Of a stretch of DNA of 64,000 bases, positions 1-53,810 are shown piece by piece. The notes below the pieces were generated by a model, which saw nothing but the letters and a program-made list of their open reading frames with translations, searched no databases and had not been told where the DNA came from. Each line of letters begins with the position of its first letter. Position 1 is the stretch's first letter. The DNA is from an uncultured Acidimicrobiales bacterium (lineage in GTDB: Bacteria; Actinomycetota; Acidimicrobiia; Acidimicrobiales; Hopanoidiivorantaceae), in contig OY282367.1 of the NCBI GenBank assembly GCA_958295755.1, positions 204,294 to 268,293 on the forward strand. The letters run 5' to 3'. A program made the position numbers and the translations under genes.

Positions 1-3000
1 ATCACGCTACTGAGGCGAATCCGTCTAGCTACGCGATTTCTTGTGGTGATGCTACTGGGGTGGATAGCACCAGACTAACTGGGGTTACTCATACGGGTTC
101 TAGTTGTACTTTCACGGTTGATCCGATTGATACTTTGGCTGTTGGTTTGCAGGGTGCTACTTCTTTCACTGTGCCGGTTAGCTCTCCTGGCGGCCATACC
201 CTAAATGCCGCCTTTACTGTCAATATTGGCCCGGATTCAAGCATTACGGTTAGTCCGCCTTCTGCTATTGCTGTGGCTGCTAGCCGTTCCCGCACGGTTG
301 ATTTCTCAAGCTATGCTACTGATGCTGGCGGCTACACGATTTCTTGTGCCACTCCCACAACTTCGTCGTCTTTGATTACTATTGGTGCTCCTAGTGGTTG
401 TAGTGTTGCGATTACTTCTGGTTCTAGCATGGGCACAGCTACTGTTTCTGTGGTGTTTACTTCTACTGGTGGTGCTACAGCTACGGGTTCGTTTAGCTTT
501 GATGTGGGTGCTGCTTCTAGTATTTCCTTCACTGCGCCTACTGGTCTGAAGGTTGCTACTAACCGCACGAGAGTTATCAATGTCTTAGATCATGCCACAG
601 ATGGCGGTTATACCGTTACTTGTAGTGATGCGACTGCTGTAGATACCACAGAGCTGCAGTCAGTTACGCGTATCACTTCTGGCGATGGCTGTTCATTTAC
701 TGTCACGCCGAAGGCTGTTCAAGGTGCTGCTAGCTTTACTGTGCCACTTACCTCAGATGGTGGCGATACTGAAAATGCTGTGTTTGATATTGAGGTTGGC
801 CCGGCTTCAACTCTCAACTATTCTCCGCCGTCTGGGTTGAGTGTCGCTCGTAATCGCACTCTAAGTATTGATGCTTTGGCTCAGATTACTGAAGATGCTG
901 CCTATACGGTTACTTGTAGTGATGCAACAGGAGTAGATACTTCTAAGTTCACAGCTGCCAGAACTACTACTGGTGATGGTTGTACTTTCACGGTGGATCC
1001 TGTAGATACTCTCACTCCAAGTAATCAGGGTAATGTGACTTTCACAGTTACCTTTACTTCTAGTGCGGGCAACGATACAGCTTCTAGCACTGTCGGTACC
1101 TTTACTGTAAATATCGGCCCTGATTCAACTATTACTTATACCCCATCTACGCTGAAGGTCGGGCGTAACCGCACTTTGGTGATTGATGCCATAGATCATG
1201 TAACTGAGAGCAGTGCCTATACGGTTTCGTGTGGTGATGCTACTGGAGTGGATAACACCAAGCTGACTGGTGTTACTCGTTCTAGTTGTACTTTCACAGT
1301 TGATCCGATTGATACTCTCGCGTCTGGCTCTCAGGGTGATACTACCTTTACTGTGCCGCTTACTTCTACTGGTGGTCACACCCTAAATGCCACCTTCACC
1401 GTAAACATCGGCCCTGATTCAACTATTAGCTATACCGCACCGACTGGGCTGTTAGTGGGCCGTAATCGTAATTTGGTGATTGATGCTTCTACCTATGTGT
1501 CTGAGACTGCTGGTAGCGGCTATGTGATCTCATGTTCAGATGCAGCGAGTTTGCATTCCAGGCTTACCACGGTTGCTAGAACTGCTAATAGCTGTACTTA
1601 TACCATCACGCCTTATGTTTTTGCTTCAGCAGGTGATGCTACCTTCGCTATTACTTTCACTTCCGATGGTGGCCATACCCGAAGTGAGACGATAACTGTT
1701 GGGATCGGCCCTGATTCAACTATTGGCTATAGCGCACCGTCTGGGCTGATGGTTGGGCGTAATCGCACTTTGGTGATTGATGTGCTGTCTTATGTAACTG
1801 AGAACAGTGTCTACACGGTGTCTTGTGGTGATGCTACTGGTGTGGATAACACCAAGTTGACTTCGGTTTCTCATAGTGGTTCTAGCTGTACTTTCACTGT
1901 GGATCCGATAGATGCTCTAGCTAGCGGCTCGCAGGGTGATACTAGCTTTATTGTGCCTCTTAGCTCTACTGGCGGTGATACAGCTAGTGCTGACTTTACT
2001 GTAAATGTCGGCCCGGATAGCACTATTTCATATACCGCACCGACTGGGCTAAAGGTCGGACGTAATCGCACTTTGGTAATTAATGTGCTAGATCACATAG
2101 CTGAAAATACTGCCTACACAATGTCTTGTGGTGATGCTACTGGTGTGGATAGCACTAGGTTGGTTTCGGTTTCTCATAGCGGTTCTAGCTGTACCTTCAC
2201 CGTAGACCCGATAAATACTCTGGCTAGTAGCTTGCAGGGTGATGCTGCTTTCACTGTGCCGGTTTCATCTACTGGTGGCCATAGCATAGATGCTGGTTTT
2301 ATGGTTGATGTTGGTGCGGATTCTGTGATTGTGGTTTCTGCTCCTTCAGCTATTGGTATTCCTGCTAGTAGTTCCCGCACGGTTGAGTTCTCAGATTATG
2401 TTTCTGATGGCAGCTACACGATTTCTTGTGGCACTCCCACAGCTTCTTCGTCTTTGGTTTCTGTTGGCACCCCAACTGGTTGTAGTGTTGAGATTACTTC
2501 TGGAACTAATATGGGCATAGTAGTTGTTTCAGTGCCCTTTACCTCAGATGGTGGTGCTAGCACTACGAGTTCATTTACCTTTGATATAGGTGCTGCTTCT
2601 AATATTGTCTTCACCGCGCCGTCTGGGTTGAAGGTTGGTACTAACCGCACGAGAGTTATCGATGTGTTAGATTACGCCTCTGATGGTAACTACACCATTA
2701 CTTGTTCAGATGCGACTGCTGTAGATACCACTGAGCTGCAGTCAGTTACGCGTGATAGCTCTGGTAATGGCTGTTCATTTACTATCACACCTAAAGCTGT
2801 TCAGGGTGATGCTAGCTTTACTGTGCCACTTACCTCAGATGGTGGCGATACCCTTGATGCGGTATTTTCTATAACTGTTGGTCCCGCTTCTACTATTTCA
2901 TACACCGCGCCCACCGGTTTGTTCACTGCTCGTAATCGCTTGTTGGTGATTGATGCTTCAAGCTATGTGTCAGAGACTGCTGGTAGTGGCTATGTGATTG

Positions 3001-4808
3001 CGTGTGCTGATGCTACCTCTGTTCATTCCAGGCTTACTTCAGTTACCCGTGATGGCTGTTCTTACACTGTTACCCCAAGTATCTCTGCCACAGCAGGCAA
3101 TGCCACATTCGGTGTTGTTTTCACTTCTGATGGTGGCCATTCCCGCAGCGAGACGATAACTGTTGAGATCGGCCCCAACTCAACTCTTAGCTACAACCCA
3201 CCAGTGGGGTTGAGAGTGGGCCGTAACTACACGCTAGTAATCGACGCACTTGACTATGTAACGGAGAACCCTGCTTACACAGTTACCTGTGGTGATGCTA
3301 CCGGTGTGGAAGCAGCCAAACTCACCGCAACACGCACCACATCAGGAAATGGTTGCTCATTTACCATAGACCCGGTAAATAATTTGGCTGTTGGTTTGCA
3401 GGGCAATACTTCTTTTGTTGTGCCTCTTAGCTCAACAGGCAACAACAACCTCTCTGCTACCTTCAACATATACATCGGCCCCGACAGCAATATTGTCTTC
3501 ACCGCACCGGACGCAATAACTGTCGGCCGTAACCGCACTATAGCCATCAACGCGCTAGAACACATAGCTGAAAATGCTGCCTTTGCGGTTACTTGTGGTG
3601 ATGCTACCGGTGTTGATAACACGAAGCTCACCTCTGTTACACGCACAGGCTGTGTGTTTATAGTAGATCCGATAAACACACTAACTAGTGCCGACCAGGG
3701 CGATACTACTTTCACTGTGGCTTTCACTTCCAACGGTGGAGACACAGCTACAGGCACATTTACTGTAAATGTTGGCCCGGATTCTAATATTGTCTTTACC
3801 CCACCACAGCCGAACTTCTCAATGCTAGCTAGAACCTCAGCTATCTTCGATCTCGGTGCTTTAGTAACAGACGGGGACTACAGCATTGCTTGCGGCCAGA
3901 TAGGTGCTATAGATACCGCGAGGCTGTTTTCTGTAACCCGCACCACAGGCTGTAGCTACCAGATAAGAGCCGCCTCAACTCAAGGGCTTGCTACTTTCAA
4001 TATCACCTACACCTCAACTGGCGGTCACAGCTACACATCCCAAATCGGTATAACCATCCAACCTAACTTCATAGCACCACCAACCAGACCATCCCCATCC
4101 CCAACCACCACCACAACAACGACTACTATTCCTGGGCAATCAACCACCACAACTGACCCCACCGCTACTACCACAACGCTAGAACCCGACACACCTGGCC
4201 CTAGATGGAACACACTAACTGTTGGTAGTGGCGGTATCACAGCTAGGGAAATCAGAAACACACTAGGTATTACTTCTAACTACGCCATCTATGCCTGGAA
4301 TGCCCGCACACAAACCTGGACAAGAGTTACCCTGTTCTCAGCAAGACTAACTGAGGGCACAATAGTCTCGTTCCGCACCGACACAGCCCCCAACCCAGAC
4401 CAACTAGACGACTTGAACCTAGGCAGCGGCTCTGACACCGCACGCCTAGACCGGGGCTGGAACCTCATCAACATACCCAGAGCAATCACCCGCGAAGAAT
4501 CTGACACATTCTTCTTCGGTGACACCCTCATAGACTGCGAAAACCTCCAAGGCATAACAGCTGTAGCCAACTACAACCCACGCAGCCGAAGATGGTCACT
4601 CTGGCTACCATGTCACCCACGAGCTCAAACCCGCCTCACCACAGGTGAAAACCCACCATACCAACCACTCACCCACATCATCCCAGGCGACACCACCTAC
4701 ATCTACACCATTACCAGACAACCCATAAACATCGAATGGAACCCCCGAACCCAAACCTACCAACCCGCCACCACAACCCTAAACCCACCCATAATAACCC
4801 TCAACTAA
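1..4808 (+). CDS. Giant repetitive surface protein, paralog 1 (5'-truncated by window edge): ~14 two-Cys beta-sandwich-like repeats, Pro/Thr linker, conserved C-terminal domain
   Basis: The frame is open from the window start (HATEANPSSYAISCGDATGVDS...), so the GTG at 60 is not the true start. Colinear and closely similar to 20802-25612 of the next gene. Stop TAA at 4806-4808. Confidence 0.9.
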   Translation, partial: HATEANPSSYAISCGDATGVDSTRLTGVTHTGSSCTFTVDPIDTLAVGLQGATSFTVPVSSPGGHTLNAAFTVNIGPDSSITVSPPSAIAVAASRSRTVDFSSYATDAGGYTISCATPTTSSSLITIGAPSGCSVAITSGSSMGTATVSVVFTSTGGATATGSFSFDVGAASSISFTAPTGLKVATNRTRVINVLDHATDGGYTVTCSDATAVDTTELQSVTRITSGDGCSFTVTPKAVQGAASFTVPLTSDGGDTENAVFDIEVGPASTLNYSPPSGLSVARNRTLSIDALAQITEDAAYTVTCSDATGVDTSKFTAARTTTGDGCTFTVDPVDTLTPSNQGNVTFTVTFTSSAGNDTASSTVGTFTVNIGPDSTITYTPSTLKVGRNRTLVIDAIDHVTESSAYTVSCGDATGVDNTKLTGVTRSSCTFTVDPIDTLASGSQGDTTFTVPLTSTGGHTLNATFTVNIGPDSTISYTAPTGLLVGRNRNLVIDASTYVSETAGSGYVISCSDAASLHSRLTTVARTANSCTYTITPYVFASAGDATFAITFTSDGGHTRSETITVGIGPDSTIGYSAPSGLMVGRNRTLVIDVLSYVTENSVYTVSCGDATGVDNTKLTSVSHSGSSCTFTVDPIDALASGSQGDTSFIVPLSSTGGDTASADFTVNVGPDSTISYTAPTGLKVGRNRTLVINVLDHIAENTAYTMSCGDATGVDSTRLVSVSHSGSSCTFTVDPINTLASSLQGDAAFTVPVSSTGGHSIDAGFMVDVGADSVIVVSAPSAIGIPASSSRTVEFSDYVSDGSYTISCGTPTASSSLVSVGTPTGCSVEITSGTNMGIVVVSVPFTSDGGASTTSSFTFDIGAASNIVFTAPSGLKVGTNRTRVIDVLDYASDGNYTITCSDATAVDTTELQSVTRDSSGNGCSFTITPKAVQGDASFTVPLTSDGGDTLDAVFSITVGPASTISYTAPTGLFTARNRLLVIDASSYVSETAGSGYVIACADATSVHSRLTSVTRDGCSYTVTPSISATAGNATFGVVFTSDGGHSRSETITVEIGPNSTLSYNPPVGLRVGRNYTLVIDALDYVTENPAYTVTCGDATGVEAAKLTATRTTSGNGCSFTIDPVNNLAVGLQGNTSFVVPLSSTGNNNLSATFNIYIGPDSNIVFTAPDAITVGRNRTIAINALEHIAENAAFAVTCGDATGVDNTKLTSVTRTGCVFIVDPINTLTSADQGDTTFTVAFTSNGGDTATGTFTVNVGPDSNIVFTPPQPNFSMLARTSAIFDLGALVTDGDYSIACGQIGAIDTARLFSVTRTTGCSYQIRAASTQGLATFNITYTSTGGHSYTSQIGITIQPNFIAPPTRPSPSPTTTTTTTTIPGQSTTTTDPTATTTTLEPDTPGPRWNTLTVGSGGITAREIRNTLGITSNYAIYAWNARTQTWTRVTLFSARLTEGTIVSFRTDTAPNPDQLDDLNLGSGSDTARLDRGWNLINIPRAITREESDTFFFGDTLIDCENLQGITAVANYNPRSRRWSLWLPCHPRAQTRLTTGENPPYQPLTHIIPGDTTYIYTITRQPINIEWNPRTQTYQPATTTLNPPIITLN

Positions 4809-4816
4809 AACCCCTG

Positions 4817-4868
4817 CGCCGCAATATTCCCCAGCGACATTCCGCCGCAATACTTCCCAGTAACATTC
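4817..4868. repeat. Imperfect 26-bp tandem duplication just after the paralog 1 stop
   Basis: cgccgcaatattccccagcgacattc / cgccgcaatacttcccagtaacattc. Confidence 0.75.
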
Positions 4869-4929
4869 TGCTATGATTTAATTGGATACACAATGAGACC
4901 ACGATACCTCTACCGATTTGTTGCGCCTA

Positions 4930-4976
4930 CTGATGCGACTTAAGACTTCCCCTACTATATGTTGCGGGGGGGGGGG
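4930..4976 (+). promoter_or_regulatory. Putative promoter of the 6865-aa gene, with a G11 tract at the predicted transcript start
   Basis: TACTAT (-10-like) at 4953-4958, CTGATG 17 bp upstream, G11 at 4966-4976. Confidence 0.45.
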
Positions 4977-5029
4977 CGGATGGTTTCTGACACTGAAAAT
5001 ACTGACCGCACCAAGTGAAGGGAGCTTGT

Positions 5030-8000
5030 ATGAATTCAAAGAGTTTACAGACGGGGGGGGGTTATCGAAAAATGGTTAGGGACGCAGAAGATGAGCGAGA
5101 TACAATCGCGCGGAATTCTAGAATACTGGGAATAGGACAGGGGCGGCAGAGCAGTAGTGTTCGCAGGTGGTTTATCGCTTTCATAGCTACTTCACTGTTT
5201 GCTACTGTGTTGTTTGCCGCTTCGGTATTTGCACATCCGGTTGCCGCGCAAAATGGTGGGGAGGATCAGGTGCAGGATGGACAGACTCAGGAGGGGGATA
5301 GTCAGAGTGGGGACGGTCAGGAGGGTGGTGAGTCTCCGGCGACTACGACTACCACGGTGGCACCAACTACTACCACTACTTCGACCACAGTGCCGGCGTC
5401 TACCACCACCACTTCGACTACGGTGGCACCGTCTACCACTACCACGGTGCCTGTTTTGGATCCCGAGGTTGTTGAGCCTGTTGAGCCTGAGGTTGAGCAG
5501 CAGCAAGCCCAGAACCGTGAGATTACTTTTAATGCTCCGTCTGGTTTGTCGGTAGGTGCTGGGGGGAGTTTAGTGATTGATGCTTCTAGTTATGCTAGCG
5601 ATCCGGGTTTTGTGATTTCTTGCGCTGATGCTACTGGTGTGGATGGTACTAAAGTCACCGTTTCTCGTGATGGTTGTTCTTTCACGGTTAGGTCGTCTGT
5701 GTCGGCTGTTGCGGGCGATACCACTTTTTCAACAGTGTTGAGTTCTTCTAGGACTGGCAGCACTCCCGTTACCGCGACTTTTACTGTTGCTATTACTGCT
5801 TTGTCAGTTGTTGCGGGGCGGAATTTGGTGTTCATGGCTGCGGGTTATCCTTCTGAGGGTACTCCCACAGCTTGCACTCAAGCTTCAGGTGTAGACACCT
5901 CTAAGATCAGTGTTAATCGCAATCCTTTTAATCATCCTCGAGGTGGTTGTACCTTTAGAGTTGCTGCGTATTCATCATCAATAGGGGCGACTACTTTTAC
6001 TTCGGTGCTGACTTTTTCTGGCGGTGGCAACCGCACTGTAACATTTCCTATCAACATTACCCCGACTTCAAGTATTACCTTTGTGGCACCTTTAGGCGGG
6101 TTGAGTGTTCCTGTGGGACAGTCCAAGAATTTCTCTGTTTCTAGCTATGCCAGAGACGGCACATACACAATTTCCTGTCGTTTTGCTGATTCCAGCCGCC
6201 ATGCTTTGATCGCCTCAGTTGCCAATACCGGCTGTGATTTCACTGTGCGAGCTGGCAATGTTGCTGGTTCGGCGACGCTGTCTGTTATCTATAACTCATC
6301 AGGCGGCCATGAGGTAACTGGTGTGATCCCAATAACGGTGGCATCTACTTCTAGTTTGACTTTCACCGCGCCTAGTGCTTTGAATGTGCGCATAGGTCAG
6401 ACAATAGGCATCAACGCCCGGCTATATGCTTCTGATGGTGCTAACGCGGTTGCTTGTGATGTAGCAACTGGGGTAGTCGGTGGGATTACTGTTGAGTCTC
6501 CGGTGGGTTGTTCTTATCGGGTAACAGCAGGCAACACTAGGGGGACAGCTTCCTTCGTTGTGCCTTACGCCTCAGCTAGCGGTAGCACACTTAATGGTCG
6601 CATTGACATAAACATTTTGGGTGCTCTTTCTGATATTGATTTCACCGCACCAATAGGTTTGACAGTAGCTTCAAGGGGTGTTATCACGATAGATGCCTCA
6701 GCTTATGCTTCTAGTGCGTACAGTGTTTCTTGTGGCACTATCACACAATCTCGTGGGCATTCTGTAGGCATTGTTCAAGATGGTTGTTCTTTTGAGGTAA
6801 CCGCTGGAACTCCAATGCCCCTTGGTAGTGAGGGGTTCGCTTTTATCACGGTGCCTTATACCAACTCTGAGGGCGGTTCTCAAAGCGGTGAAATCTCACT
6901 AGTAATAGGGGCAGTTCCCACACTGTCAGCTGCGGGTTGTACTGATGGTACTTTTGTAGATCTAACTGCTAACCCCAGAGTTACTGGTGCTAACAACGAT
7001 CTGGTTGAAGATTGCCAAGCATTGGTAGCAGCCCAGAATCTGTGGGCTGGGGTTGCTGCTAATGGTGATTTGCGTTCTCCCTATTTCATTAGAAGCTGGG
7101 GCACAGGCACACCCGAACAGCAAAAGATTGCTAGTTGGGAAGGCGTAACAGTCACATCCGGGCGTGTAACAGAGCTAGAAATAGATAACACGGGCGAAGA
7201 AGACGGCATCTCAGGCACCATCCCCACACAGATCGGCAACCTCTCCGCACTTACTATCCTTGATATCTCTTATAACCAGCTCTCAGGTGCTATCCCGACC
7301 CAGATCGGCACCCTAACAGCACTTACTTCTTTGGATCTTTCCGGCAATAGCCTCACGGGTGCTATCCCGACTCAAATCGGCTCCCTCACTGCGCTTACTT
7401 CTTTGGATCTTTCTGCTAATCAGCTCTCAGGTGCTATCCCGACCCAGATCGGTTCTCTCACTTCTCTAACACAGCTCTCATTGGGTAGTAACCAGCTCAC
7501 CGGGGCTATCCCCACCCAGATCGGTTCGCTTAGTTCTCTCGTTCAGCTTTATCTAGGCGGCAACATGCTTACTGGCTCTGTGCCCACCCAGATAGGTGCT
7601 ATAACTACTCTCACTACCCTTAGCATCTGCTTCAACCAGCTCACCGAAGCCCTCCCGGTAGCCCTGCGAACAGGCGTCACCCTACTTGGCTACCCCAGAG
7701 CTGACGGCTTTGACCCTATAGGCTGTCAGTCCAATATAGTTTTCACAGCCCCTACCAACCTCCGGGTTGCTCGCAACTCCACGCTAGAGATTAATGCTTT
7801 GAGTCACATTACTGCGAGCAGTATTTTCACCGTTTCTTGTGGCGATGCTACGGGGGTGGATGCTACCAAATTCACAGCTACCCGAACTACTACTGGTAAT
7901 GGTTGTACCTTCACTGTAGATCCAGTCGATACTCTCAGTAGTGGCGATCTGGGCGATGTGACTTTTACTGTGCCGTTTACTTCTACCGGTGGTACTACAG

Positions 8001-11000
8001 CTAGTGGCACATTCACTGTGAATATTGGCCCTGATTCTGATATCGTTTTTGCCGTTCCTGAAAGGGTGCTTGTGGAGTCTTGGGATCCGGCGAGGGTAGA
8101 TTTGTCGCGGTATGCTTCTGACGGCCCTCATGATATTTCTTGTTCTGGGATTACTAGGGGTCATCAGGTAAGTTCTGCTAGCGGGAGGTTTTCAGTTTCT
8201 GGTTGTGTAGTGTCTTTTTACCCCATTCCCGACCTCACCCACAACCACAACCGACGAACTAGTGTTTGGGTTACTTATACCTCATCTGGTGGTGATACAC
8301 ATAGAGCAGAAGTTAATTTCTATTCGAAGTCTTTACATCTTACTAGTATCATTTTCACTGCTCCCAGTCCTGCTCCGGCTGTTACTGCTGGCCAAAGTGT
8401 TGTTGTGGATGCCTCAGCTTGGGTAGAAGATTTTTTTGGTTACTCTGTGTTTTGTGAAAATGCTACCAATATAGACAGCAACAAGCTTACTTCTGTCACT
8501 CGCACACGAGATTGCCTCTATGAGATCACAGCCGATAGTCTTGCCTCGGGAACAGCTACTTTTACCGTGCCTTACTATTCTACTGGCCTACATAACAGGA
8601 ACACACCAGAGACTCGCAATGCGGTGATTTCTGTTACTGTCAATGCTGGTTCTAACTTTGTATATACCGCTCCTTCAGATTTGGTAGTACCAGTGAGCAC
8701 GAACACACAGAGCCAGAGCATCACAGTTGATGCTTCTGAGTGGGCACAAGATGGCAGTTACGACATAACCTGCGCGAACGCTAACACTATCTCATCTAAC
8801 CTAGCTTCAGTTGTTCGCAATGGTGATACTTGCTCATTTACCATCACTTCTGGGACCACAGAAGGTGCTGCGTCTTTTACTGTGCCATACAGCTCTAGCG
8901 GTAGCACTGGTAGCACTAACGGGGTTGTCTCACTCACCGTCGGCCCTGCTTCTGCTATTGTCTTCACAGCTCCTACTGGCCTTCAGGTTAACACAGGTGA
9001 TATCCGCTTCATTGATGTCTCTGTTTATGCCACCGACGGCCCTTACAAAATCACCTGCGCTGACCAATCCAGCTCCAGCTTTCAAAATATTTTATTGCGC
9101 CATAATAACTGTTCATTCGCAGTCCGACCTCCGGGAGCAGGTAACCACTGGTTTGAAGTGCCTTATACCTCTTCTGGCGGAGATACACACACGGGCCGAA
9201 TAACTTTCACAGCAGGGGGCGCAACCAGTGTTTCTGCTACCATCCCATCGGGTCTTACCGTCGCAAGAGGTAGTTCTGTAACCCTAGATGCTTCCAGTTT
9301 TTCTTCCAACGGCACCTGTGCAGGAGCTGCCTATATCTCCCCGCTACTTACTTCTGTTACCCGCCCAGACATAGCCAATAATCCTTGCACATACACAGTT
9401 ACAGCAGGCAACACACTAGGCACAGCCACCTTTAGCATCGTCTATAGATCAACCGGCCAAAGTCTTCATACATCCAGAGTCAGCTACTCCGTCACTACCC
9501 CCTCTACTATCGTCTACAACGCGCCTTCTGGTTTGTCGGTGGATGCTGGGGGCAGTTTGGTGGTTGATATGTCTGATTATGCTAGCGACGGGAGCAACAC
9601 GATTTCTTGCGCTGATGCTACTGGTGTGGATAATCAAAAGGTCACCGTTACTCGTGATGGGTGTGATTTCGCGGTTAGGGCGTCTGTTTCGGCTGCTACT
9701 GGTGTAACAACATTTTCTACTGTTTTGTCTTCTTCTGGTGGCGGTGCTGGGCTTCCTGTGACTGTTAGTGTTGCAATTACTGCTTTGTCGGTTGCTGCTG
9801 GGCGGAGTTTGGGGTTCGTGGCTGCGGGTTATCCTTCTGAGGGTGCGGCGACAGCTTGTGGGGCTGCTGCAGGTGTGGATGCCTCTAAGATCACAGTTGT
9901 ACAAAGTACTCCTGAGCACGAAACTAATCGTCCTGCTGCTACTACTGGCACGGATTGTTTCTTTACTGTTACTGCTCTTAGTTCAGCAGCTAGTGGGGTG
10001 ACTACTTTTACTTCGGAGTTGACTTTTTCTGGTGGTAGCCGAACTGTGACATTCAGTGTTGATATTGGCGCGGCTTCAAGTATTACATTTACGGCCCCTC
10101 CGGGCGGGTTGAGTATCCCTGCGGGTCAGTTAAGGAATTTCAGTGTTGCTAGTTACGCCACTGATGAGGATTACACAATTTCTTGTGGTTTTGCCGACTC
10201 TTCTCGCCATAGCTTGATTGCTTCGGTGGCTAATACTAGCTGTGATTTCACAGTGCGCGCGGGTAGTTCTGCTGGTGCGGCGACGCTGTCTGTTATTTAT
10301 TACTCTTCTGGTGGCGATGAGGTTACTGGTGTGATCCCTATCACGGTGACATCTACTTCTAGTTTGACTTTCACCGCACCTAGTGCTTTGAATGTGCGCA
10401 TAGGCCAGACAATAGGCATCAACGCTCGGCTATACGCCTCAGATGGTGCTAACGCGGTTGCTTGTGATGTAGCAACTGGGGTAACGGGTGGGATTACTGT
10501 TCAATCTCCGGTGGGTTGTTCATATCGGGTAACAGCAGGCAACACGGTTGGTACAGCTAGTTTTGTTGTGCCTTACACCTCAAGTAGTGGCCGCACACTT
10601 AATGGTCGCATTGATATCAATATTGTGGATACCAGCTCAAATATTGACTTCACCGCACCAACAGGTTTGACAGTTGCTGCTAGTGGTGTTATCAACATAG
10701 ATGCAGGTGAGTATGTGTCTGACGGGCCTTTTAGTATTTCTTGTGGCACTCCGTTGAGCGTGTCTGCGCTTATTTCTAGTATCAATGAAGATGGCGGCTG
10801 TTCTTATGAGGTAACCGTTGGAGCTACAGCAGGCACGGCTACCTTTACAGTGCCATATACCTCTTCGGGGGGCGATACCCACAATGGTGTGATCTCACTA
10901 GTCATTGGTGCTGTCCCAACATTGGCTGCTGCGGGTTGTACTGATGGTACTTTTGTGGATCTCACAGATAACCCCAGAGTTACTGGTGCTAACAACGATC

Positions 11001-25612: not shown

Positions 25613-25629
25613 AATCCTAGATCGCATAG

Positions 25630-25710
25630 CGATTATATAAACAGAATATATATAATGTATTTTATATAATGTCATGTATGATAGTGGTTGTGCTAGCATA
25701 TAAAAGTAGT
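25630..25710 (+). promoter_or_regulatory. AT-rich promoter region upstream of paralog 3 with duplicated TATATAATGT
   Basis: atatataatgtattttatataatgtcat contains two TATAAT hexamers; strongly AT-rich relative to its flanks. Confidence 0.5.
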
Positions 25711-25771
25711 CTGGTAACTGCCTTGTTTAGTATTAGCCACATCCGTACCCTAGAAGGAAAGACATATCAAA

Positions 25772-28700
25772 ATGACACACAGATTCGAACGCTCAAGCTC
25801 AAAGAGCTTGCATGATGTCAAAGAGTTTACAGGCGGGGGGGGGTCATCGAAAATGGTTAGGGACGCAGAAGGTGAGCGAGATACAGTCGCGCGGGATTCT
25901 AGAATGCCGGGAATAGGACAGGGGCGGCAGAGTAGTAGTGTTCGCAGGGGGTTGGTCGCTTTCATAGCTACTGCGCTGTTTGCTACGGCTTTGTTTGCTG
26001 CTCTAGCGCAACCGGTTGCTGCGCAGCGTGAGATTACTTTTAATGCGCCTTCTGGTTTGACGGTGGTTGCTGGGCAGAGTATAGTGATTGATGCTTCTGA
26101 TTATGCTAGTGATCCGGGTTTTGTGATTTCTTGTGCTAATCCTACAGGTGTGGATAGTAGTAAGGTGTGGGTTACTCGTGCTTCTGGGACTTGTGATTTC
26201 ACGGTTAGAGCGTCTGTGTCAGCTGTTGCGGGAAATACTACTTTTTCAACTGTGTTGAGTTCTTCTAGGACTGGTAGCACTACTCTTACCGCGACTTTTA
26301 CTGTTACTATTACTCCTATGTCGGTTCCTGCGGGGGGGCAGTTAACGTTCTTGATGCAGGGTCAACCTGCTTGGGGTGCTGTGGGGTTCGGTTGTAGTAC
26401 TGCTCCTACAGGTGTAGATGCTTCTAGGTATTCTGTCACAAGGCCATCTGGTTGTTTCCGCAGAATTACAGTTGAGAGTTCGGCTACTACGGGGCCTGCT
26501 TCGTTTACTGTGCGGCTCAGCTATGCAAACTCTGGTGGTCAGAGTTGGGCAACGACTTTCAATTTCGTTATTACCCCGGCTTCTAACATTATATTTACGG
26601 CACCTCCAGGCGGGTTGACTATCCCCGTAGGCCAGTTCAGGAATTTTGATGTTTCTAGCTACGCTACTGACGGCGACTACACAATTTCTTGTCGTTTTTC
26701 TGCCGCTTCTCGCCATAGCCTGATTGCTTCTGTTGCTAATACTGGCTGTGATTTCACGGTGCGTGCTGGTAGGACTGCCGGTGCGGCAACGCTTAGTGTT
26801 ATCTACAACTCTGATAATGGCGGTTTTTGGCCTGTCGGTGAGCTTACTGCTGAGATCCCTATAACGGTGGCAGATCCTTCTAGTTTGACTTTCACCGCTC
26901 CTAGTGCTTTGAATGTGCGTGTAGGTCAGACAATAGGCATCAACGCGCGGCTTTATGCTTCTGATGGTGCTAACGCGGTTGCTTGTGATGTAGCAACTGG
27001 GATAGTCGGCGGGATCACTGTTAAATCTCCCGGGGACACTTTTGGACATCCCGTGGACAGTGGTAAAACTCTGACTCTGGGGGGTTGTTCTTATCGGGTA
27101 ACAGCAGGAAACACTGTAGGGACAGCTTCCTTTGTTGTGCCCTATGTCTCATCTAGTGGCCGCACGCTAAATGGTCGTATAAACATCAATATTTTGTCTG
27201 CTGCTCCTACTATTTTCTTCACCGCACCAACAGGTCTGTCGGTTGCTGCTGGCGGTGTTATTACTATAGATGCTTCAGGTTATGCTCCAAGTGCATATAG
27301 TGTTTCTTGTGGCACTATTACGCAGTCTCACGCGCTTATTGCTAGCATTTTTGAAGAAGGTTGTTCTATTGAGCTAACCGTAGGCAACACAGCGGGAACG
27401 GCTACCTTCACGGTGCCCTACACCAACGCTGAGGGCGGTGCCCTTGATGGTGTGATTTCTCTGGTTATAGGATCTGTGCCCGCCTTGGCGGTTGCTGGGT
27501 GTACTGATGGTACTTTTGTAGATACCACTGCTAACCCCAGAGTCGCAGGTGCTAATAACGATCTCGTAGAAGATTGCCAAGCATTGGTAGCAGCCCAGAA
27601 CCTATGGGCCGGAGTTGCTGCTAATGGTGAGCTGCGTTCTCCTTATTTCATTAGAAGCTGGGGCACAGGAACACCCGAACAACAAAAGATAGATAGCTGG
27701 GAAGGTGTCACAGTTACCTCCGGGCGTGTAACAGCGTTAGAAATAGACAATACGGGTGAAGAAGACGGCATCTCAGGTACTATTCCTACCGAGCTGGGTG
27801 ACCTCACGGCTTTGACTACTTTGGATCTTTCTTCTCACCAGATCTCAGGTACTATCCCCACTCAGCTAGGTTCTCTTACGGCTCTTACTGCGCTAGATCT
27901 TTCTGGTAACCAGCTCACCGGTGCTATTCCTTCACAGATCGGTTCTCTTGCGGGTCTTACTTTTTTGGATCTTTCTGGTAACCAGCTCAGCGGTGCTATT
28001 CCTTCACAGATCGGTTCTCTTACGGCTCTCACTTCTTTGTATCTTTCTTCTAATGAGCTCACCGGGGCTATCCCGATACAGATCGGTTCTCTTGCGGGTC
28101 TTACTGCTTTGAGTCTTTCCGGTAATCAGCTCAGCGGTGCTATTCCTTCACAGATCGGTTCTCTTGCGGCTCTTACTTTTTTGGATCTTTCCGGTAATCA
28201 GCTCAGCGGTGCTATTCTTTCACAGATCGTTTCTCTTACGGATCTCACTTCTTTGAATCTTTCTTCTAACGAGCTCACCGGTGCTATTCCGACACAGATC
28301 GGTTCTCTTACGGATCTCACTTCTTTGGATCTTTCCGGTAACGAGCTCACCGGTGCTATTCCTTCACAGATCGGTTCTCTTACGGATCTCACTTCTTTGG
28401 ATCTTTCCGGTAACGAGCTCAGCGGTGCTATTCCTTCACAGATAGGTTCTCTTACGGCTCTTACTATTTTGGATCTTTCTTCTAACGAGCTCAGCGGTGC
28501 TATTCCTTCACAGATAGGTTCTCTTACGGCTCTCACTTCTTTGGATCTTTCTTCTAACGAGCTCACCTGGGCTATCCCCTTCCAGCTTGGTTCTCTTACG
28601 GCTCTCACTTCTTTGGATCTTTCTTCTAACGATCTCATCGGTACTATTCCTTCACAGCTAGGTTCTCTGAACTCTCTTGTTGCTCTTGATCTTAGTAGCA

Positions 28701-29587
28701 ACAGATTGATTGGGTCTGTTCCCGCAGCAATAGGTTTCATCACCACCCTTAGCACCTTCAGTATCTGCGATAACCAGCTTACTGGGGCACTTCCCACAAG
28801 TCTGCGTACAGGTGTTACCTTGCTTGGTTATCCCACCGCCGACGGCTATACCCCCATTGCCTGTCAGAACCCGGTAGAACCACAGCCGGAAATCCCACAG
28901 CCGGAAACTCCACAGCCGACATCTCCACAGCCGACATCTCCACAGCCATTCACCCCAACCCCCACGCCTGCGCCTTCTGGTGGAGAGGATGCTACTGGTG
29001 ATGTAGCCGTTCCTAGGTGGAATACTTTGACCGTTTCTGGTGACGGTATCACTGCTAGTGAGATCAGATCTACACTTGGAATTCCTGCCAACTATGGCAT
29101 CTACACTTGGAATGAACGCACACAAACATGGACTAGAGTAACCTCCTCCTCACAGAGTCTGTCCGCAGGTACGCTTGTCTCCTTCCGCACAGTCGCTGCT
29201 CCTGACCCAGACCTGCTAGATGGCTTGAATCTAGGTAGCGGTTCAGAAACCGTTAGTCTAAATCGAGGCTGGAATCTCATTAACGTTCCCAGTGTTGTCA
29301 CCCTTACGGAAGACAGCACTTTCCTCATTGATGACTCCCTCATAGACTGCGATAACCTCCAAGGCATCGTAGCTGTAGCTAGCTATAGTGCCAGTAATCG
29401 AAGATGGTCACTCTGGTTACCATGTAACCCACGAACTCAAGCCCGTCTCACCACAGGGCGAAACGCTCCATACCTAGTATTCACCAGAATTGCCCCAGGC
29501 GACACCACCTATTTCTACAACAATGCCAGACAACCTATAGACATTATCTGGGACACTGAAACCCAAACCTACCAAGTTGCTAACTAA
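25772..29587 (+). CDS. Secreted Ig-like/LRR surface protein, paralog 3 (5 two-Cys repeats, 14 LRRs, PQP linker, conserved C-terminal domain)
   Basis: AGAAGGA upstream of ATG 25772 (alternative ATG 25853); G9 at 25835-25843; signal peptide VRRGLVAFIATALFATALFAALAQPVAA|Q. Confidence 0.9.
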   Translation: MTHRFERSSSKSLHDVKEFTGGGGSSKMVRDAEGERDTVARDSRMPGIGQGRQSSSVRRGLVAFIATALFATALFAALAQPVAAQREITFNAPSGLTVVAGQSIVIDASDYASDPGFVISCANPTGVDSSKVWVTRASGTCDFTVRASVSAVAGNTTFSTVLSSSRTGSTTLTATFTVTITPMSVPAGGQLTFLMQGQPAWGAVGFGCSTAPTGVDASRYSVTRPSGCFRRITVESSATTGPASFTVRLSYANSGGQSWATTFNFVITPASNIIFTAPPGGLTIPVGQFRNFDVSSYATDGDYTISCRFSAASRHSLIASVANTGCDFTVRAGRTAGAATLSVIYNSDNGGFWPVGELTAEIPITVADPSSLTFTAPSALNVRVGQTIGINARLYASDGANAVACDVATGIVGGITVKSPGDTFGHPVDSGKTLTLGGCSYRVTAGNTVGTASFVVPYVSSSGRTLNGRININILSAAPTIFFTAPTGLSVAAGGVITIDASGYAPSAYSVSCGTITQSHALIASIFEEGCSIELTVGNTAGTATFTVPYTNAEGGALDGVISLVIGSVPALAVAGCTDGTFVDTTANPRVAGANNDLVEDCQALVAAQNLWAGVAANGELRSPYFIRSWGTGTPEQQKIDSWEGVTVTSGRVTALEIDNTGEEDGISGTIPTELGDLTALTTLDLSSHQISGTIPTQLGSLTALTALDLSGNQLTGAIPSQIGSLAGLTFLDLSGNQLSGAIPSQIGSLTALTSLYLSSNELTGAIPIQIGSLAGLTALSLSGNQLSGAIPSQIGSLAALTFLDLSGNQLSGAILSQIVSLTDLTSLNLSSNELTGAIPTQIGSLTDLTSLDLSGNELTGAIPSQIGSLTDLTSLDLSGNELSGAIPSQIGSLTALTILDLSSNELSGAIPSQIGSLTALTSLDLSSNELTWAIPFQLGSLTALTSLDLSSNDLIGTIPSQLGSLNSLVALDLSSNRLIGSVPAAIGFITTLSTFSICDNQLTGALPTSLRTGVTLLGYPTADGYTPIACQNPVEPQPEIPQPETPQPTSPQPTSPQPFTPTPTPAPSGGEDATGDVAVPRWNTLTVSGDGITASEIRSTLGIPANYGIYTWNERTQTWTRVTSSSQSLSAGTLVSFRTVAAPDPDLLDGLNLGSGSETVSLNRGWNLINVPSVVTLTEDSTFLIDDSLIDCDNLQGIVAVASYSASNRRWSLWLPCNPRTQARLTTGRNAPYLVFTRIAPGDTTYFYNNARQPIDIIWDTETQTYQVAN

Positions 29588-29682
29588 AGCTCTTGGTAAG
29601 CTAATAACATATAAAAATGGTTTGGTAACTGCCTTGTTTAGTATCAGCCACATCCGTACCCCAGAAGGAAAGACATATCAAA

Positions 29683-32600
29683 ATGACACACAGATTCGAA
29701 AGCTCAAGCTCAAAGAGCTTGCATGAACTCAAAGAATTGACAGACGGGGGGGGGTTATCGAAAATGGTTAGGGACGCAGAAGGTGAGCGAGATACAGTCG
29801 CGCGGAATTCTAGAATGCCGGTGAGGGGAATAGGACAGGGGCGACAGGGAAGTAGTGTTCGCAGTAGTGTTCGCAGGGGGTTTGTTGCTTTCATAGCTAC
29901 TGCGTTGCTTGCTACGGCTTTGTTTGCTACTTCGGCGTCGAATCCAGCTGTCGCACAGACTCCTGTGATTACTTTTAATGCGCCTTCTGGTTTGACGGTG
30001 GTTGCTGGGCAGAGTATAGTGATTGATGCTTCTGCTCATGCTAGTGATGTAGGTTTTGTGATTTCTTGTGCTGATCCTACAGGTGTGGATGGTCAAAAGG
30101 TGTGGGTTACTCGTGAGGGTTGTTCCTTCACGGTTAGGGCGTCAGTATCAGCTGTTGCGGGTGATACTACTTTTTCTACAGTGTTGAGTTCTTCTAGGAG
30201 TGGTAGCACTACTCTTACCGCGACTTTTACTGTTGCTATTAGTCCTTTTTCGGTTGTTGTGGGGACACATTTTCCGTTCGTGCTTGCGGGTTATCCTTCT
30301 GAGGGTGCTGTGACGGCTTGTAGTCAACCTCCTCAAGGTGTAGATAGTGGTAGGTATGCTGTTCGCAATATCCCCGGTACCCCGTGTACCTACAGAATTG
30401 AAGTTCAGAGTTCGGCTACTACGGGTTTGACTTCGTTTTCTTCGTCACTCACTTTTTCTGGTGGTACCCGTACTGTGACTTTCACTTTCAATATTGTTGC
30501 GCGTGGGATTACTTTTAATGCGCCTTCTGGTTTGACGGTGGTTGCTGGGCAGAGTATAGTGATTGATGCTTCTGATTATGCTAGTGATCCGGGTTCTGTG
30601 ATTTCTTGTGCTGATCCTACAGGTGTGGATGATCAAAAGGTGTGGGTTACTCGTGCTTCTGGGACTTGTGATTTCACGGTTAGAGCGTCTGTGTCAGCTG
30701 CTGCGGGAGATACTACTTTTTCGACTGTGTTGAGTTCTCCTAGGTTTACTCTTACCGCGACTTTTACTGTTGCTATTACTCCTATGTCGGTTGCTGCGGG
30801 GCGGCATTTAGTATTTGTGGTTGGGGGTTATCCTTCTGAGGGTACTCCCACAGCTTGTGCTGCTGCTTCAGGTGTAGATACTAATAAGATCACAGTTGCT
30901 CGCAATGGTTGTATTTTTACTGTTACTGCTTCTAGTTCAGCAGCAAGTGGGGTGACTACTTTTACTTCGGCGGTGACTTTTTCTGGCGGCAACCGCACTG
31001 TAACATTTCCTATCAACATTACCCCGGCTTCAGCTATTACATTTTCGGCACCTGCGGGCGGGTTGAGTATTCCTGTAGGGAATTTCAGGAATTTTGATGT
31101 TTCTAGCTACGCTACTGACGGCGACCACACAATTTCTTGTCGTTTTGCCGCCTCCTCTCGCCATAGCTTGATTGCTTCTGTTGCTAATACTGGCTGTGAT
31201 TTCACAGTGCGAGCTGGCAGGACTGCCGGTGCGGCAACGCTGAGTGTTATCTATAACTCATCAGGTGGCACTGAGGTAACTGGTGTGATTCCTATCACGG
31301 TGGCAGCTACTTCTAGTTTGACATTCACTGCTCCTAGTGCTTTTAATGTGCGTGTAGGTCAGACAATAGGCATCAACGCGCGGCTTTACGCTTCTGATGG
31401 TGCTAACGCGGTTGCTTGTGATGTAGCAACTGGGGTAACAGGCGGGATCACTGTTGAATCTCCGGTGGGTTGTTCTTATAAGGTAACAGCAGGAAACACT
31501 GTAGGGACAGCTAGTTTTGTTGTGCCCTATGCCTCAAGTAGCGGCCGCACGCTAAATGGTCGTATAAACATCAATATTTTGCCTCCTAGTCCTACTATTT
31601 TCTTCACCGCACCAACAGGTCTGTCGGTTGCTCCTGGCGGTGTTATTACTATAGATGCTTCAGCCTATGCTCAAAGTGCATATAGTGTTTCTTGTGGCAC
31701 TATTACGCAGTCTCACGCGCTTATTGCTACTATTTTTGAAGAAGGTTGTTCTATTCAGCTAACCGTAGGCAACACAGGTGGCACAGCTACCTTTGAGGTG
31801 CCCTACACCAACGCTGAGGGCGGTGCCCTTGATGGTGTGATTTCTCTAAGAATAGGCTCAATCCCAGCCTTGTCGATTGCTGGGTGTACTAATGGTACTT
31901 TTGTAGATGTCACTGCTAACCCCAGAGTCGCAGGTGCTAATAACGATCTCGTAGAAGATTGTTATGCATTGGTTGCGACCCGGAACCTATGGGCCTCCCA
32001 AGCCGCTAATCACAATCTGCGTTCTTCTTATTTCATTCGAACTTGGGGTACAGGCACTCCCTCTCAGCAAAAGATCGATAGGTGGGAAGGTGTAACAGTT
32101 ACCGCAGGGCGCGTAACAGGGTTGGAAATAGACAATACGGGTGAAGAAGACGGCATCTCAGGTTTTATTCCTACTCAGCTTGGTAATCTCAGGGCTTTGA
32201 CTACTTTGGATCTTTCTTCTCACCAGCTCTCAGGTGCTATTCCTACTCAGCTTGGTAATCTCAGGGCTTTGACTACTTTGGATCTTTCTGGTAACGAGCT
32301 CACCTGGGCTATCCCTTCACAGCTAGGTTCTCTTACTGGTCTAACTTCTTTGGATCTTTCTTCTAATGATCTCATCGGTGTTATTCCTTCACAGCTTGGT
32401 TCTCTTAGCTCTCTTACTGATCTTTATCTTGGCGGTAACAGATTGATTGGGTTTGTTCCCACAGCAATAGGTACCATCACCACCCTTAGCACCTTCAGTA
32501 TCTGCGATAACCAGCTCACTGGGGCACTTCCCACAAGTCTGCGTACAGGTGTTACCTTGCTTGGTTATCCCACCGCCGACGGCTATACCCCCATTGCCTG

Positions 32601-33324
32601 TCAGAACCCGGTAGAACCACAGCCGACAACTCCACGGCCTGGAACTCCACAGCCTGGAACTCCACAACCGACATCTCCACAGCCATTCGTCCCAACCCCC
32701 GCGCCTGCGCCTTCTGGTGGAGATGATGCTACTGGTGATGTAGCCGTTCCTAGGTGGAATACTTTGACCGTTTCGGGTGGCGGTATCACTGTTAGTGAGA
32801 TCAGATCTACACTTGGAATTCCTGCTAGCTATGGCATCTACGCTTGGAATGAACGTACACAGACGTGGACTAGAGTAACCTCCTCTTCACCGAGATTGTC
32901 CGCAGGTACGCTTGTCTCCTTCCGCACCACCGCTGCTCCTGACCCAGATCTGCTAGAGGACTTGAATCTAGGTAGCGGTTCAGAAACCGTTAGTCTGAAT
33001 CGAGGCTGGAGTCTCATTAACGTTCCCAGTGTTATCACCCGCACGGAAGACAGCACTTTCCTCCTTGATGACTCCCTCATAGACTGCGATAACCTCCGAG
33101 GCATCGTAGTTGTCGCTAGCTATAGTGCCAGTAATCGAAGATGGTCACTCTGGTTACCATGTCACCCACGAACTCAAGCCCGCCTCACCACAGGGCGAAA
33201 CGCTCCATACCTAGAATTCACCAGAATTGCCCCAGGCGACACCACCTATTTCTACAACAATGCCAGACAACCTATAGACATTATCTGGGACACCGAAACC
33301 CAAACCTACCAAGTTGCTAACTAA
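29683..33324 (+). CDS. Secreted Ig-like/LRR surface protein, paralog 4 (7 two-Cys repeats, 5 LRRs, PQP linker, conserved C-terminal domain)
   Basis: Tandem duplicate of paralog 3 including ~75 bp of upstream sequence (offset 3911). G9 at 29746-29754; alternative ATG 29764. Internal duplication ~29968-30240 / ~30508-30780. Confidence 0.9.
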   Translation: MTHRFESSSSKSLHELKELTDGGGLSKMVRDAEGERDTVARNSRMPVRGIGQGRQGSSVRSSVRRGFVAFIATALLATALFATSASNPAVAQTPVITFNAPSGLTVVAGQSIVIDASAHASDVGFVISCADPTGVDGQKVWVTREGCSFTVRASVSAVAGDTTFSTVLSSSRSGSTTLTATFTVAISPFSVVVGTHFPFVLAGYPSEGAVTACSQPPQGVDSGRYAVRNIPGTPCTYRIEVQSSATTGLTSFSSSLTFSGGTRTVTFTFNIVARGITFNAPSGLTVVAGQSIVIDASDYASDPGSVISCADPTGVDDQKVWVTRASGTCDFTVRASVSAAAGDTTFSTVLSSPRFTLTATFTVAITPMSVAAGRHLVFVVGGYPSEGTPTACAAASGVDTNKITVARNGCIFTVTASSSAASGVTTFTSAVTFSGGNRTVTFPINITPASAITFSAPAGGLSIPVGNFRNFDVSSYATDGDHTISCRFAASSRHSLIASVANTGCDFTVRAGRTAGAATLSVIYNSSGGTEVTGVIPITVAATSSLTFTAPSAFNVRVGQTIGINARLYASDGANAVACDVATGVTGGITVESPVGCSYKVTAGNTVGTASFVVPYASSSGRTLNGRININILPPSPTIFFTAPTGLSVAPGGVITIDASAYAQSAYSVSCGTITQSHALIATIFEEGCSIQLTVGNTGGTATFEVPYTNAEGGALDGVISLRIGSIPALSIAGCTNGTFVDVTANPRVAGANNDLVEDCYALVATRNLWASQAANHNLRSSYFIRTWGTGTPSQQKIDRWEGVTVTAGRVTGLEIDNTGEEDGISGFIPTQLGNLRALTTLDLSSHQLSGAIPTQLGNLRALTTLDLSGNELTWAIPSQLGSLTGLTSLDLSSNDLIGVIPSQLGSLSSLTDLYLGGNRLIGFVPTAIGTITTLSTFSICDNQLTGALPTSLRTGVTLLGYPTADGYTPIACQNPVEPQPTTPRPGTPQPGTPQPTSPQPFVPTPAPAPSGGDDATGDVAVPRWNTLTVSGGGITVSEIRSTLGIPASYGIYAWNERTQTWTRVTSSSPRLSAGTLVSFRTTAAPDPDLLEDLNLGSGSETVSLNRGWSLINVPSVITRTEDSTFLLDDSLIDCDNLRGIVVVASYSASNRRWSLWLPCHPRTQARLTTGRNAPYLEFTRIAPGDTTYFYNNARQPIDIIWDTETQTYQVAN

Positions 33325-46045: not shown

Positions 46046-46573
46046 ATGCTCGGTCAATATCTTCCCATTATCGCTCTGGCTGTGTTGGCTGTTGTTTTTG
46101 CCGCGTTGAGTATTTTGGCGTCTCGCATGTTGGCCCCCCGGCGTCGCACGATCGTGAAAGAAGCCCCTTACGAGTGCGGTGTAGAACCTGTAGATACCAG
46201 CTCGCAGCGTCACACCGTGAAGTTTTTCTTGGTAGCGATGCTCTTTATAGTCTTTGATGTGGAGATAATCTTCTTGTATCCGTGGGCAGTTTCGAACGGA
46301 GAGCTTGGGTTGTTTGGCTTCGTGGCTGTGTTGATATTTTCCTTCGCTGTGTTTGAGTCGTTCCTGTATCTAATCAGCAACGGAGCCCTCAACTGGGGCC
46401 CCTCGCGCAAGATGGCTGGAAGCCAGGAGATGGGAGGTATTACTGGCGGAGGTACTATTGGCGGAGGTATCAGCCAACCCAGCGCAGTAAGCCAGAAACG
46501 CACCGCAGCTACCACCATTCGCAGGGTCGGTGCTGGATTGCCGGAGAATTTTCTGGGTAGCAGGCAAGAGTAA
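46046..46573 (+). CDS. nuoA: NADH-quinone oxidoreductase subunit A, with Gly-rich C-terminal extension
   Basis: [28 protein letters not shown]. Confidence 0.95.
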
Positions 46574-47211
46574 TGACAGATACCAATGCAGGGCAGGAGT
46601 ACACGGCTGTTCCCGAGCTGCTACCACCCTTAGCCGACGATCGCCTGCTCTCTGAAGGTCTGGAAGGTCTGCAGCACAACTTCATTACAGGCCGCATAGA
46701 GGATATGGTCAAATGGTCGCGTGCTCGTAGCTGTTGGCCTGCCACATTCGGATTGGCTTGCTGCGCCCTAGAAATGATGGCCACGGGCGGTGCCCATTTT
46801 GACTTGGCTCGCTATGGAATGGAAGTCTTCAGGGCGTCGCCCCGTCAAGCCGACCTGATGATAGTGGCAGGTCGCCTGTCTCAAAAAATGGCCCCCGTTT
46901 TACGCCGAATTTACGACCAGATGATGGAGCCTAAATGGGTAATTTCTATGGGTGTATGTGCCTCCAGTGGCGGCATGTTCAATAACTATGCCCTAGTGCA
47001 AGGTGTAGACCAAGTAGTGCCTGTAGATGTTTATGCTCCGGGCTGCCCACCTGGGCCTGAAACTCTGATGCATGCCATCTTGACCCTTCACGACCAAATC
47101 CAAAGTGGCGAACTGCTTCGTCGGCGCAAAGTTGGGGGAGGCGGTGCAGGCGTAATAGTAGAACAGCGAGATGGCCAAACTGCCACCAAGATGGTGAGAG
47201 CAAGCGAGTAA
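46573..47211 (+). CDS. nuoB: NADH-quinone oxidoreductase subunit B
   Basis: [34 protein letters not shown]. Confidence 0.97.
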
Positions 47212-47216
47212 CTGAG

Positions 47217-49024: not shown

Positions 49025-49145
49025 TGGCTTTTCGCTTGCAGTGCTTTTCTCATTCGCAAGACTTTCTGTCTCGCTTTCTGCAGTGCTCTCTGCCTCGCTC
49101 TTCCCGTCTGGCTGTCTTCCATTTTCAATCCTTCCAAGAATCAAT

Positions 49146-49745: not shown

Positions 49746-49746
49746 T

Positions 49747-51063: not shown

Positions 51064-51132
51064 TTAGATCTCCAGTAGCTCCATATCTAGCCAGTAGCTC
51101 CGCTTTCCCCTCCGTTCGTGATTCAGGGTGTG

Positions 51133-53807: not shown

Positions 53808-53810
53808 ACC

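Follow-up and report, generated by a model that had tools for sequence, protein, structure and literature searches.

The question raised by this locus is why an uncultured bacterium should encode, side by side, several very long proteins assembled from the same few parts, how such chains would be held by the cell, and whether their display can vary. The locus fills the first half of the window, a stretch of 64,000 nucleotides corresponding to positions 204294-268293 of G000, the 2.29-Mb single-contig source genome of an uncultured Acidimicrobiales bacterium. Among named relatives, those closest to its hemB belong to Acidimicrobiales. Four long open reading frames (ORFs) on the + strand, at 3-4808, 5015/5030-25612, 25772-29587 and 29683-33324, are here called genes A, B, C and E in that order; they encode immunoglobulin (Ig)-like repeats, cassettes of leucine-rich repeats (LRRs) and a C-terminal domain (CTD). 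We think it probable that they belong to a modular family of 26 genes whose products are likely exported, likely held at the surface by the CTD, and likely switched or tuned by slippage in runs of G or C. Four comparison genomes of the same bacterial family, G001 to G004, were available, and the five genomes are 76-90% complete. Unless a genome is named, short coordinates refer to the window, and all features given lie on its + strand.

When ORFs of G000 were collected with profiles of the four modules, 26 members of the family were found, which amount to 252,804 bases or 11.0% of the genome; the largest have 20,112, 8,809, 6,001 and 5,763 codons, counted from stop to stop. Together they hold 576 beta repeats and 66 LRR cassettes, some members carrying no LRR at all, and 19 of the 26 end in the CTD, six in a different end domain with four cysteines and one in neither. 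A sequence-only reading of the window had proposed that four paralogs reuse shared modules in different numbers, and the ORF, repeat and cassette counts bear this out. The array which it described as four genes has real modules but is larger, because the first window ORF is the C-terminal 1,601 aa of gene A, a gene of 14,266 aa (G000 166301-209101) with 93 Ig repeats and 18 LRR cassettes, and a fifth paralog of 554 aa lies upstream of it, so that the array comprises five genes over 73 kb. The same ~190-aa CTD terminates all four window genes, as had been suggested for the shared parts in general, but the first ORF has neither a signal peptide nor an LRR within the window. Similarly, the picture of LRR modules displayed on a long stalk applies to the two giants, where 32 and 29 Ig repeats separate the last cassette from the CTD, but not to genes C and E, where a short Pro/Thr-rich linker alone does so.

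Three further observations concern these ends and sizes. In the gene of about 20,000 codons (G000 782004-842505), two G10 runs lie at the 5' end and the Ig repeats number 184. The alternative four-Cys end domain, CTD-B, of about 75 aa, replaces the CTD on six family genes of G000 (loci 1609780-1630935 and 2202548-2216832) and on two fetched genes of G001. At another G001 locus (L030, positions 1-19000), a cluster of lipoprotein-like, plant-type LRR genes has neither CTD nor runs, and next to it a 288-aa protein consists of a signal peptide, a linker and the CTD, and nothing else.

Homopolymer runs mark most members of the family; the sequence-only reading overlooked them, as it did the extent of the family across the genome and the probable anchoring function of the CTD. 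The spectrum of run lengths in G000 is bimodal (G7 18, G8 1, G9 17, G10 10, G11 6; C8 6, C9 15, C10 8), and runs of exactly nine number 32 in each of G000 and G001, whereas none of 119 other genomes of the order has more than 17, and most have 0-5. Between positions -300 and +400 relative to the frame start, a G or C run of at least nine was found at 17 of 26 family genes compared with 22 of 997 other ORFs. In G001, runs occur at 13 of 18 fetched gene starts, with L011 (a locus in mid-gene) and the cluster without runs at L030 excluded from the count. The only four runs of at least nine in the window lie at the starts of genes B (two), C and E, and the start of gene A has one too. One of those at gene B is a G11 run (4966-4976), 53 nt 5' of the ATG in the promoter or 5' untranslated region, which matches a homologous G10 run upstream of gene A and is a candidate tuner of expression. 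The other is a G9 run, in frame, at codons 8-11 (5053-5061), where gain or loss of one base would reduce the product from this start to 16 or 34 aa. In genes C (25835-25843) and E (29746-29754), in-frame G9 runs at about codon 22 would similarly yield 29 or 47 aa and 29 or 46 aa.

The frame states are mixed. Counted from starts preceded by a Shine-Dalgarno (SD) sequence, six genes (B, C, E and three more) are in frame and five are out; the 20,000-aa gene has its signal peptide in another frame than the body, broken at a G10 run, and two family genes have a C10 run between SD and GTG. In G003, two signal peptides are out of frame owing to G9, and two others are kept in frame by G10, namely those of one gene that is split further on and of one remnant. 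Among the indels listed from contigs of one sample, two runs are longer by one G in a related strain. Runs at family starts, together with mixed frame states, point to phase variation by slippage, and it is likely, judging from the sequences, that the G/C runs at most family gene starts switch these genes on and off. NucS is present in four of the five genomes, and MutS was found in none of three genomes searched. According to PMC11551767, which also cites homopolymer phase variation in mycobacteria, NucS of M. smegmatis does not repair indels of 1-2 nt. Slips would be left unrepaired because the genome has NucS while MutS was not found.

Several points weigh against a simple on/off switch. 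In B, C and E, an ATG in the same frame lies between the G9 run and the signal peptide, 9-10 nt past the run (9 nt in gene C); the genes at 398333 and 402996 each have a comparable rescue ATG, which makes at least five genes in all. Because this ATG follows the run, slippage may tune rather than silence B, C and E, or their G9 runs may act as a ribosome site. Nine of the 26 family genes have no run, and the p-value of 3.6e-20 for the enrichment at family starts is overstated because paralogs are not independent. No change of run length within one clone was seen in the contigs from one sample; those mapped on genes C and E represent a ~5% divergent strain with cross-mapping of paralogs and gave no informative run variant.

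It might also be argued that the runs are neutral or structural, being ribosome sites, mutational sinks or long-read errors, and that the genes found out of frame are pseudogenes in decay, within a repeat family that expands under weak selection in a reduced genome. Several runs do sit 5-10 nt before an ATG in the manner of an SD sequence, the leading strand carries the G in 59 of 62, suggesting a mutational process, and the ~14,300-aa gene A ortholog of G001 carries its frameshift outside any run. However, length 8 is almost absent and lengths 9-11 are common, the runs cluster at surface and restriction-modification (R-M) genes, and at 415934, 530813, 2202548 and 2208256 the run follows the h-region of the signal peptide or no rescue start exists. 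Frames of 5,700-20,000 codons have stayed open behind out-of-frame runs, the same runs appear in G003, which is a fragmented genome, and the LRR framework has a ratio of nonsynonymous to synonymous change (pN/pS) of 0.13, though the pairs were selected on these sites. We thus consider neutral runs very improbable and retain slippage switching or tuning.

The strand bias of the 62 runs of at least nine holds irrespective of gene strand, with the origin set at a dnaA-like ORF, and runs of seven show the opposite bias (13 of 77). The frameshift that splits the G001 ortholog (L011, G001 1380100-1381700) may be an assembly error or a real lesion. Many other runs in G000 mark methylase, restriction and pilin-like genes, whose identity was judged from sequence. 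Runs of 9-14 occur on helicase/methylase and R-M-like genes (G000 280898, 461719, 1094489, 1132959, 1139403, 1720379 and 1973238), where a phase-variable methylome is possible, and each of the pilin-like paralogs at G000 927000-960000 and 1406977 has a G/C run near its start.

What would be displayed by these genes is indicated by the two repeat modules. The beta repeats have a median length of 97 aa, with exactly two cysteines in 574 of 576, and an AlphaFold2 model of two adjacent repeats, built from 123 sequences, shows two beta-sandwiches with a predicted local distance difference test (pLDDT) score of 97. Foldseek matched the repeat model to cadherins, titin, SraP, intimin, LigA and FrhA (E about 1e-6), and the VIA structure matches had Z 8.7-9.7 (for SraP, Z 8.8 and a root-mean-square deviation, rmsd, of 2.4 over 85 residues). 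As the model matches cadherin, titin and adhesin folds, the label Ig-like holds, and the description of the module as a two-Cys, Ig-like repeat agrees with the repeat count, the paired model and both structure searches. At the sequence level, the profile found nothing among PDB sequences under E 0.03, and Pfam scored only CelD_N and RbmA-like FnIII among curated families, as sums over the whole protein in which no individual stretch passed. The repeat was found in G000 and G001 only, among 301 genomes.

Of 99 close pairs of LRRs in the array genes, 95 have a spacing of 24 aa, and this spacing and their position table agree with the plant-specific (PS) LRR class, given in PMC4030839 as a repeat of 23-25 aa reading LxxLxLxxNxL and then SGxIPxxLxxLxx. 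The best sequence matches of the cassette in the PDB are FLS2, GSO1 and ERL1, and the W-GV---RV part of the cap aligns to FLS2; the plant receptor-kinase-type class named by the sequence-only reading is therefore supported. Five cassettes lie in gene B, namely B1 (6935-7729, capped and plant-type, 6 repeats), B2 (10934-11728, 6 repeats, with plant LRR receptor kinases as top PDB sequence matches), B3 (13484-14278, 6 repeats), B4 (14579-15166, 3 repeats) and B5 (15215-16309, 10 repeats, with an Arg/Trp-rich, highly varied concave face), while gene C has one of 14 repeats (27497-28867) and gene E one of 5 (31882-32604). No kinase was matched by Pfam, nor was a hydrophobic C-terminal segment seen by inspection; LRR_5 of Pfam was not matched either, and no NCBIfam model comes near its cut-off. 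NCBIfam matches to Xop effectors were rejected as generic LRR scores far under the cut-off.

Blocks of these modules recur in different genes. Ig subtypes form reusable blocks that are common to genes at 0.2, 0.8 and 1.63 Mb; the nearest neighbour lies in the same genome for 955 of 1,068 Ig repeats (all G000 and the fetched G001 ORFs) and in another gene for 325 of the 576 from G000. Gene B and the 8,809-codon gene, 1.4 Mb apart, match over 6,965 bp at 89%, and two tracts in this match, of 338 and 242 bp, are exact. In other assemblies, C-like alleles have 11 LRRs compared with 14 in gene C (counted by eye), in one allele elsewhere a C-like N-terminus is combined with an E-like cassette, and contigs of a related strain skip ~4.8 kb, or two paralog units, at another cluster. 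The proposal of combinatorial module reuse thus extends to blocks that are common within and between loci and strains, and a comparison between strains reveals differences in LRR number. The flanks of the array consist of hem genes and one membrane protein, with no dedicated recombinase system seen there (the genome was not searched for recombinases). These comparisons support a mixing of module blocks by recombination over evolutionary time, rather than by a programmed system. At L045:10700-15600 (G000 408700-413208), two paralogs have 2,081 identical bases, which is a very recent duplication, and a related strain is without two units there.

Do the cassettes bind specific ligands? Variability is highest at their concave positions (2.6-3.2 bits, with 99 distinct motifs in 132 array repeats), and pN is 0.35 on the concave compared with 0.18 on the convex face. 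On the other side, pN/pS of the concave face (from 179 non-independent pairs) is 0.79, not above 1, and positive selection on this face is accordingly not shown. A value below 1 would also suit proteins that act not as ligand-specific adhesins but as variable decoys, or that physically shield the cell from phage, predators or host phagocytes, and that are switched for evasion. So would the very long homogeneous stalks, with an AB repeat occurring ~50 times in two genes, the members without any LRR, and the runs on R-M genes, which suggest phage pressure. Nevertheless, 66 capped cassettes and that many distinct concave motifs exceed the needs of a shield, and binding and shielding can coexist. 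We regard pure decoys or shields as unlikely and continue with ligand binding by the LRR face as the working assumption.

The third component, the CTD, is found at 4200-4772 in gene A, 25004-25576 in gene B, 29012-29584 in gene C (the copy used for folding and searches) and 32749-33321 in gene E. Its model has a pLDDT of 90, yet the fold gave no functional clue: Foldseek returned no match at E <= 0.001, the profile found nothing among PDB sequences under E 0.03, and none of 47 CTDs scanned had a meaningful Pfam match. A likeness of the first half to RCK_C (best VIA match: Z 6.1, rmsd 2.5, 66 residues) was not used, being under the noise level of the tool. The domain occurs in all four other genomes of the bacterial family but in none of 396 other genomes of the order in GTDB (the top eight candidates being scored per genome) and in none of 300 genomes from the phylum, while peptide-pattern scans of GTDB contigs and JGI metagenomes gave no confirmed relative. 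This restricted distribution, and the NCBIfam result above, support the expectation that the proteins do not match a characterised family of invariant architecture in relatives.

A search of 1.84 billion representatives returned 287 proteins with the CTD (clusters at 50% identity). Among the best 150 of these, 143 were newly listed, and 101 were kept that have at least 300 aa and a near-full match; in 98 of the 101 the CTD lies within 30 residues of the C-terminus. By strict criteria, 27 of these homologs carry at least two PS-LRRs and 21 the two-Cys Ig repeat of this family, with 7 having both and 60 neither. Pfam was also run on 39 further CTD proteins, mostly those without a PS-LRR or Ig module plus five weak CTD matches, and identified Big_12 (6), Big_9, TSP3 (2), RCC1, CAP, fn3 and PD40, leaving 26 without a match. 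An unnamed twin 'L..GWN' repeat, of which the CTD is a derived version, is seen in weakly matching proteins too; unnamed, archaea-rich Atlas clusters with the twin repeat have a recognition score below threshold and serve as a lead only.

We consider the CTD a likely, if putative, envelope anchor because it is terminal in nearly all homologs, behind unrelated passengers. Envelope-binding modules typically show a terminal site behind Pro/Thr linkers, unrelated passengers and a build of twin repeats, as the CTD does. Moreover, SLH (PF00395) and CW_binding_2 (PF04122) were each found in none of the five genomes, at the completeness given above and with positive controls detected. The alternative is that the proteins are secreted and released, with the CTD being a module for secretion, folding or self-assembly, for example into an S-layer-like lattice. 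It accords with the uninformative fold and with the family C-termini, which end in the CTD and show no LPXTG tail or transmembrane segment (each of the five genomes has one sortase). It also accords with a conserved secreted protein of ~760 aa that ends in an ancestral-type CTD with two internal repeats visible and is a possible lattice protein. Given the features typical of envelope binding, and the negative searches for SLH and CWB2, we find release quite unlikely and prefer anchoring. The ~760-aa protein itself (L181:903-3197; G000 1907402-1909714), which has 16 homologs of 754-867 aa, no NCBIfam match and no usable Atlas match, may be a core surface or S-layer protein.

A possible course of events can be outlined from these parts. 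The N-terminal signal peptide would direct export, probably by Sec; an RRxF-like n-region was set aside as a sign of twin-arginine translocation (Tat), since a chain of ~14,000 aa is too large for it (tatC was not searched). The terminal CTD would then bind the envelope non-covalently, standing in for SLH or CWB2. Ig/cadherin-like beads are ~4 nm long, and 29-32 of them, locked by disulfides, would form a spacer of ~0.1 micrometre. From this spacer the capped LRR cassettes could bind host or environmental ligands by their variable concave face. Recombination among ~90%-identical blocks would reshuffle the modules over evolutionary time, and one-base slips would change which family members a cell displays.

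Within the array, gene A appears in the window as a tail open at its 5' end (3-4808), with an Ig-repeat stalk, a Pro/Thr linker and the CTD. Gene B has 6,865 aa from position 5015, or 6,860 aa from the SD-preceded ATG at 5030 (5030-25612). It starts with a long n-region and a predicted signal peptide ending PVAA|Q (5030-5248, by inspection and with no predictor), followed by five Ig repeats, a cassette of six LRRs, eleven Ig repeats, a second and, after six more Ig repeats, a third cassette of six, a single Ig repeat, adjoining cassettes of three and ten LRRs, a stalk of 29 two-Cys Ig-like repeats with higher-order blocks (16319-24862) and the CTD. Gene C (1,271 aa, 25772-29587) consists of a signal peptide, five Ig repeats, its single cassette, the Pro/Thr linker and the CTD, and gene E (1,213 aa, 29683-33324) has the same order with seven Ig repeats. 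The site of the array is a broken hem operon, as hemA, which in G002, G003 and G004 lies within ~1-1.5 kb of cobA-hemD, is far from it in G000 and G001; at the matching site G001 has its ~14,300-aa gene, with a module order that is partly common and partly different. The array genes (1-33324) have T at 45-47% of third positions, compared with ~20% in housekeeping genes. Further along the window (46046-57600), the series of NADH dehydrogenase genes breaks off after nuoF (51063), and beyond it lies a low-GC stretch that holds an N6/N4 DNA methylase and unassigned ORFs. Rfam gave no matches within the window.

Several known systems resemble this family in part. The ectodomains of plant LRR receptor kinases (FLS2, GSO1, ERL1) have the same 24-aa LxxLxLxxNxLSGxIPxxLxxL repeat and a partly alignable N-cap; here, the proteins are bacterial, lack a transmembrane helix or kinase, and carry short cassettes, as many as 18 in one chain, which have their own Cys-bearing caps and are interleaved with Ig repeats. 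Listeria internalins and Tannerella BspA are likewise paralogs with a signal peptide, capped LRRs, Ig-like repeats and a C-terminal anchor. They differ in LRR class (the InlK model scores 17-22 bits compared with a cut-off of 1,100) and in the LPXTG motif missing here, whereas the present chains have many cassettes, are 10-20 times longer and have homopolymer switches. The giant Ig/cadherin-repeat adhesins (SraP, intimin, LigA, FrhA, and also LapA and SiiE) have the same bead fold, but here no curated Big or cadherin Pfam model is reached, a Cys pair is invariant, PS-LRR cassettes are set along the chain, and neither RTX nor a type I secretion signal was seen. In Campylobacter jejuni and Neisseria, poly-G/C contingency loci show the same bimodal spectrum, runs of 9-11 in the promoters or 5' coding regions of surface and R-M genes, and mixed frames; the present, putative case differs in its host, an uncultured Acidimicrobiales bacterium, in its LRR/Ig giant targets, and in having some runs between SD and start. 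The Cwp (CWB2) proteins of Clostridioides difficile and the SLH families have dozens of unrelated passengers on one terminal module, which a conserved core protein also carries, but the CTD is neither CWB2 nor SLH. The proteins appear to act like LRR surface proteins of the internalin/BspA type and giant Ig adhesins under Campylobacter-type contingency control, but by the features examined they are neither internalins, receptor kinases nor SLH/CWB2 proteins. Giant genes are known in Actinobacteriota, and LRR enrichment has been published for sponge Acidimicrobiia, in other clades than this one, according to bioRxiv 10.1101/2023.11.21.568195 and PMC11706023, respectively. A literature search, with most subscription journals outside its reach, found no paper on this family or on phase variation in sponge symbionts.

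The family is noteworthy for its scale, its probable switches and a terminal domain that has no name. In symbionts, eukaryote-like LRR proteins are usually tallied as domains in fragmented assemblies, while the complete chromosomes used here show how they are built and diversified and how they are probably regulated. Run lengths in metagenome reads would report which surface proteins are displayed per population and host, and the CTD, which has 287 clusters but no Pfam model, may be a new envelope anchor and could serve to mark surface proteins. The GPP34 symbiont marker was found in none of the five genomes, where no positive control matched either. We put forward tentatively, and with more doubt than confidence, that a family of host-associated Acidimicrobiales has swapped SLH and LPXTG for an unnamed envelope-binding domain and displays a receptor-like repertoire of dozens of plant-type LRR cassettes with a variable concave face, carried and recombined on Ig fibres that reach 20,000 residues, each gene being switched stochastically by slippage. 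If true, this would represent a bacterial counterpart of variable LRR receptor repertoires, used for host recognition.

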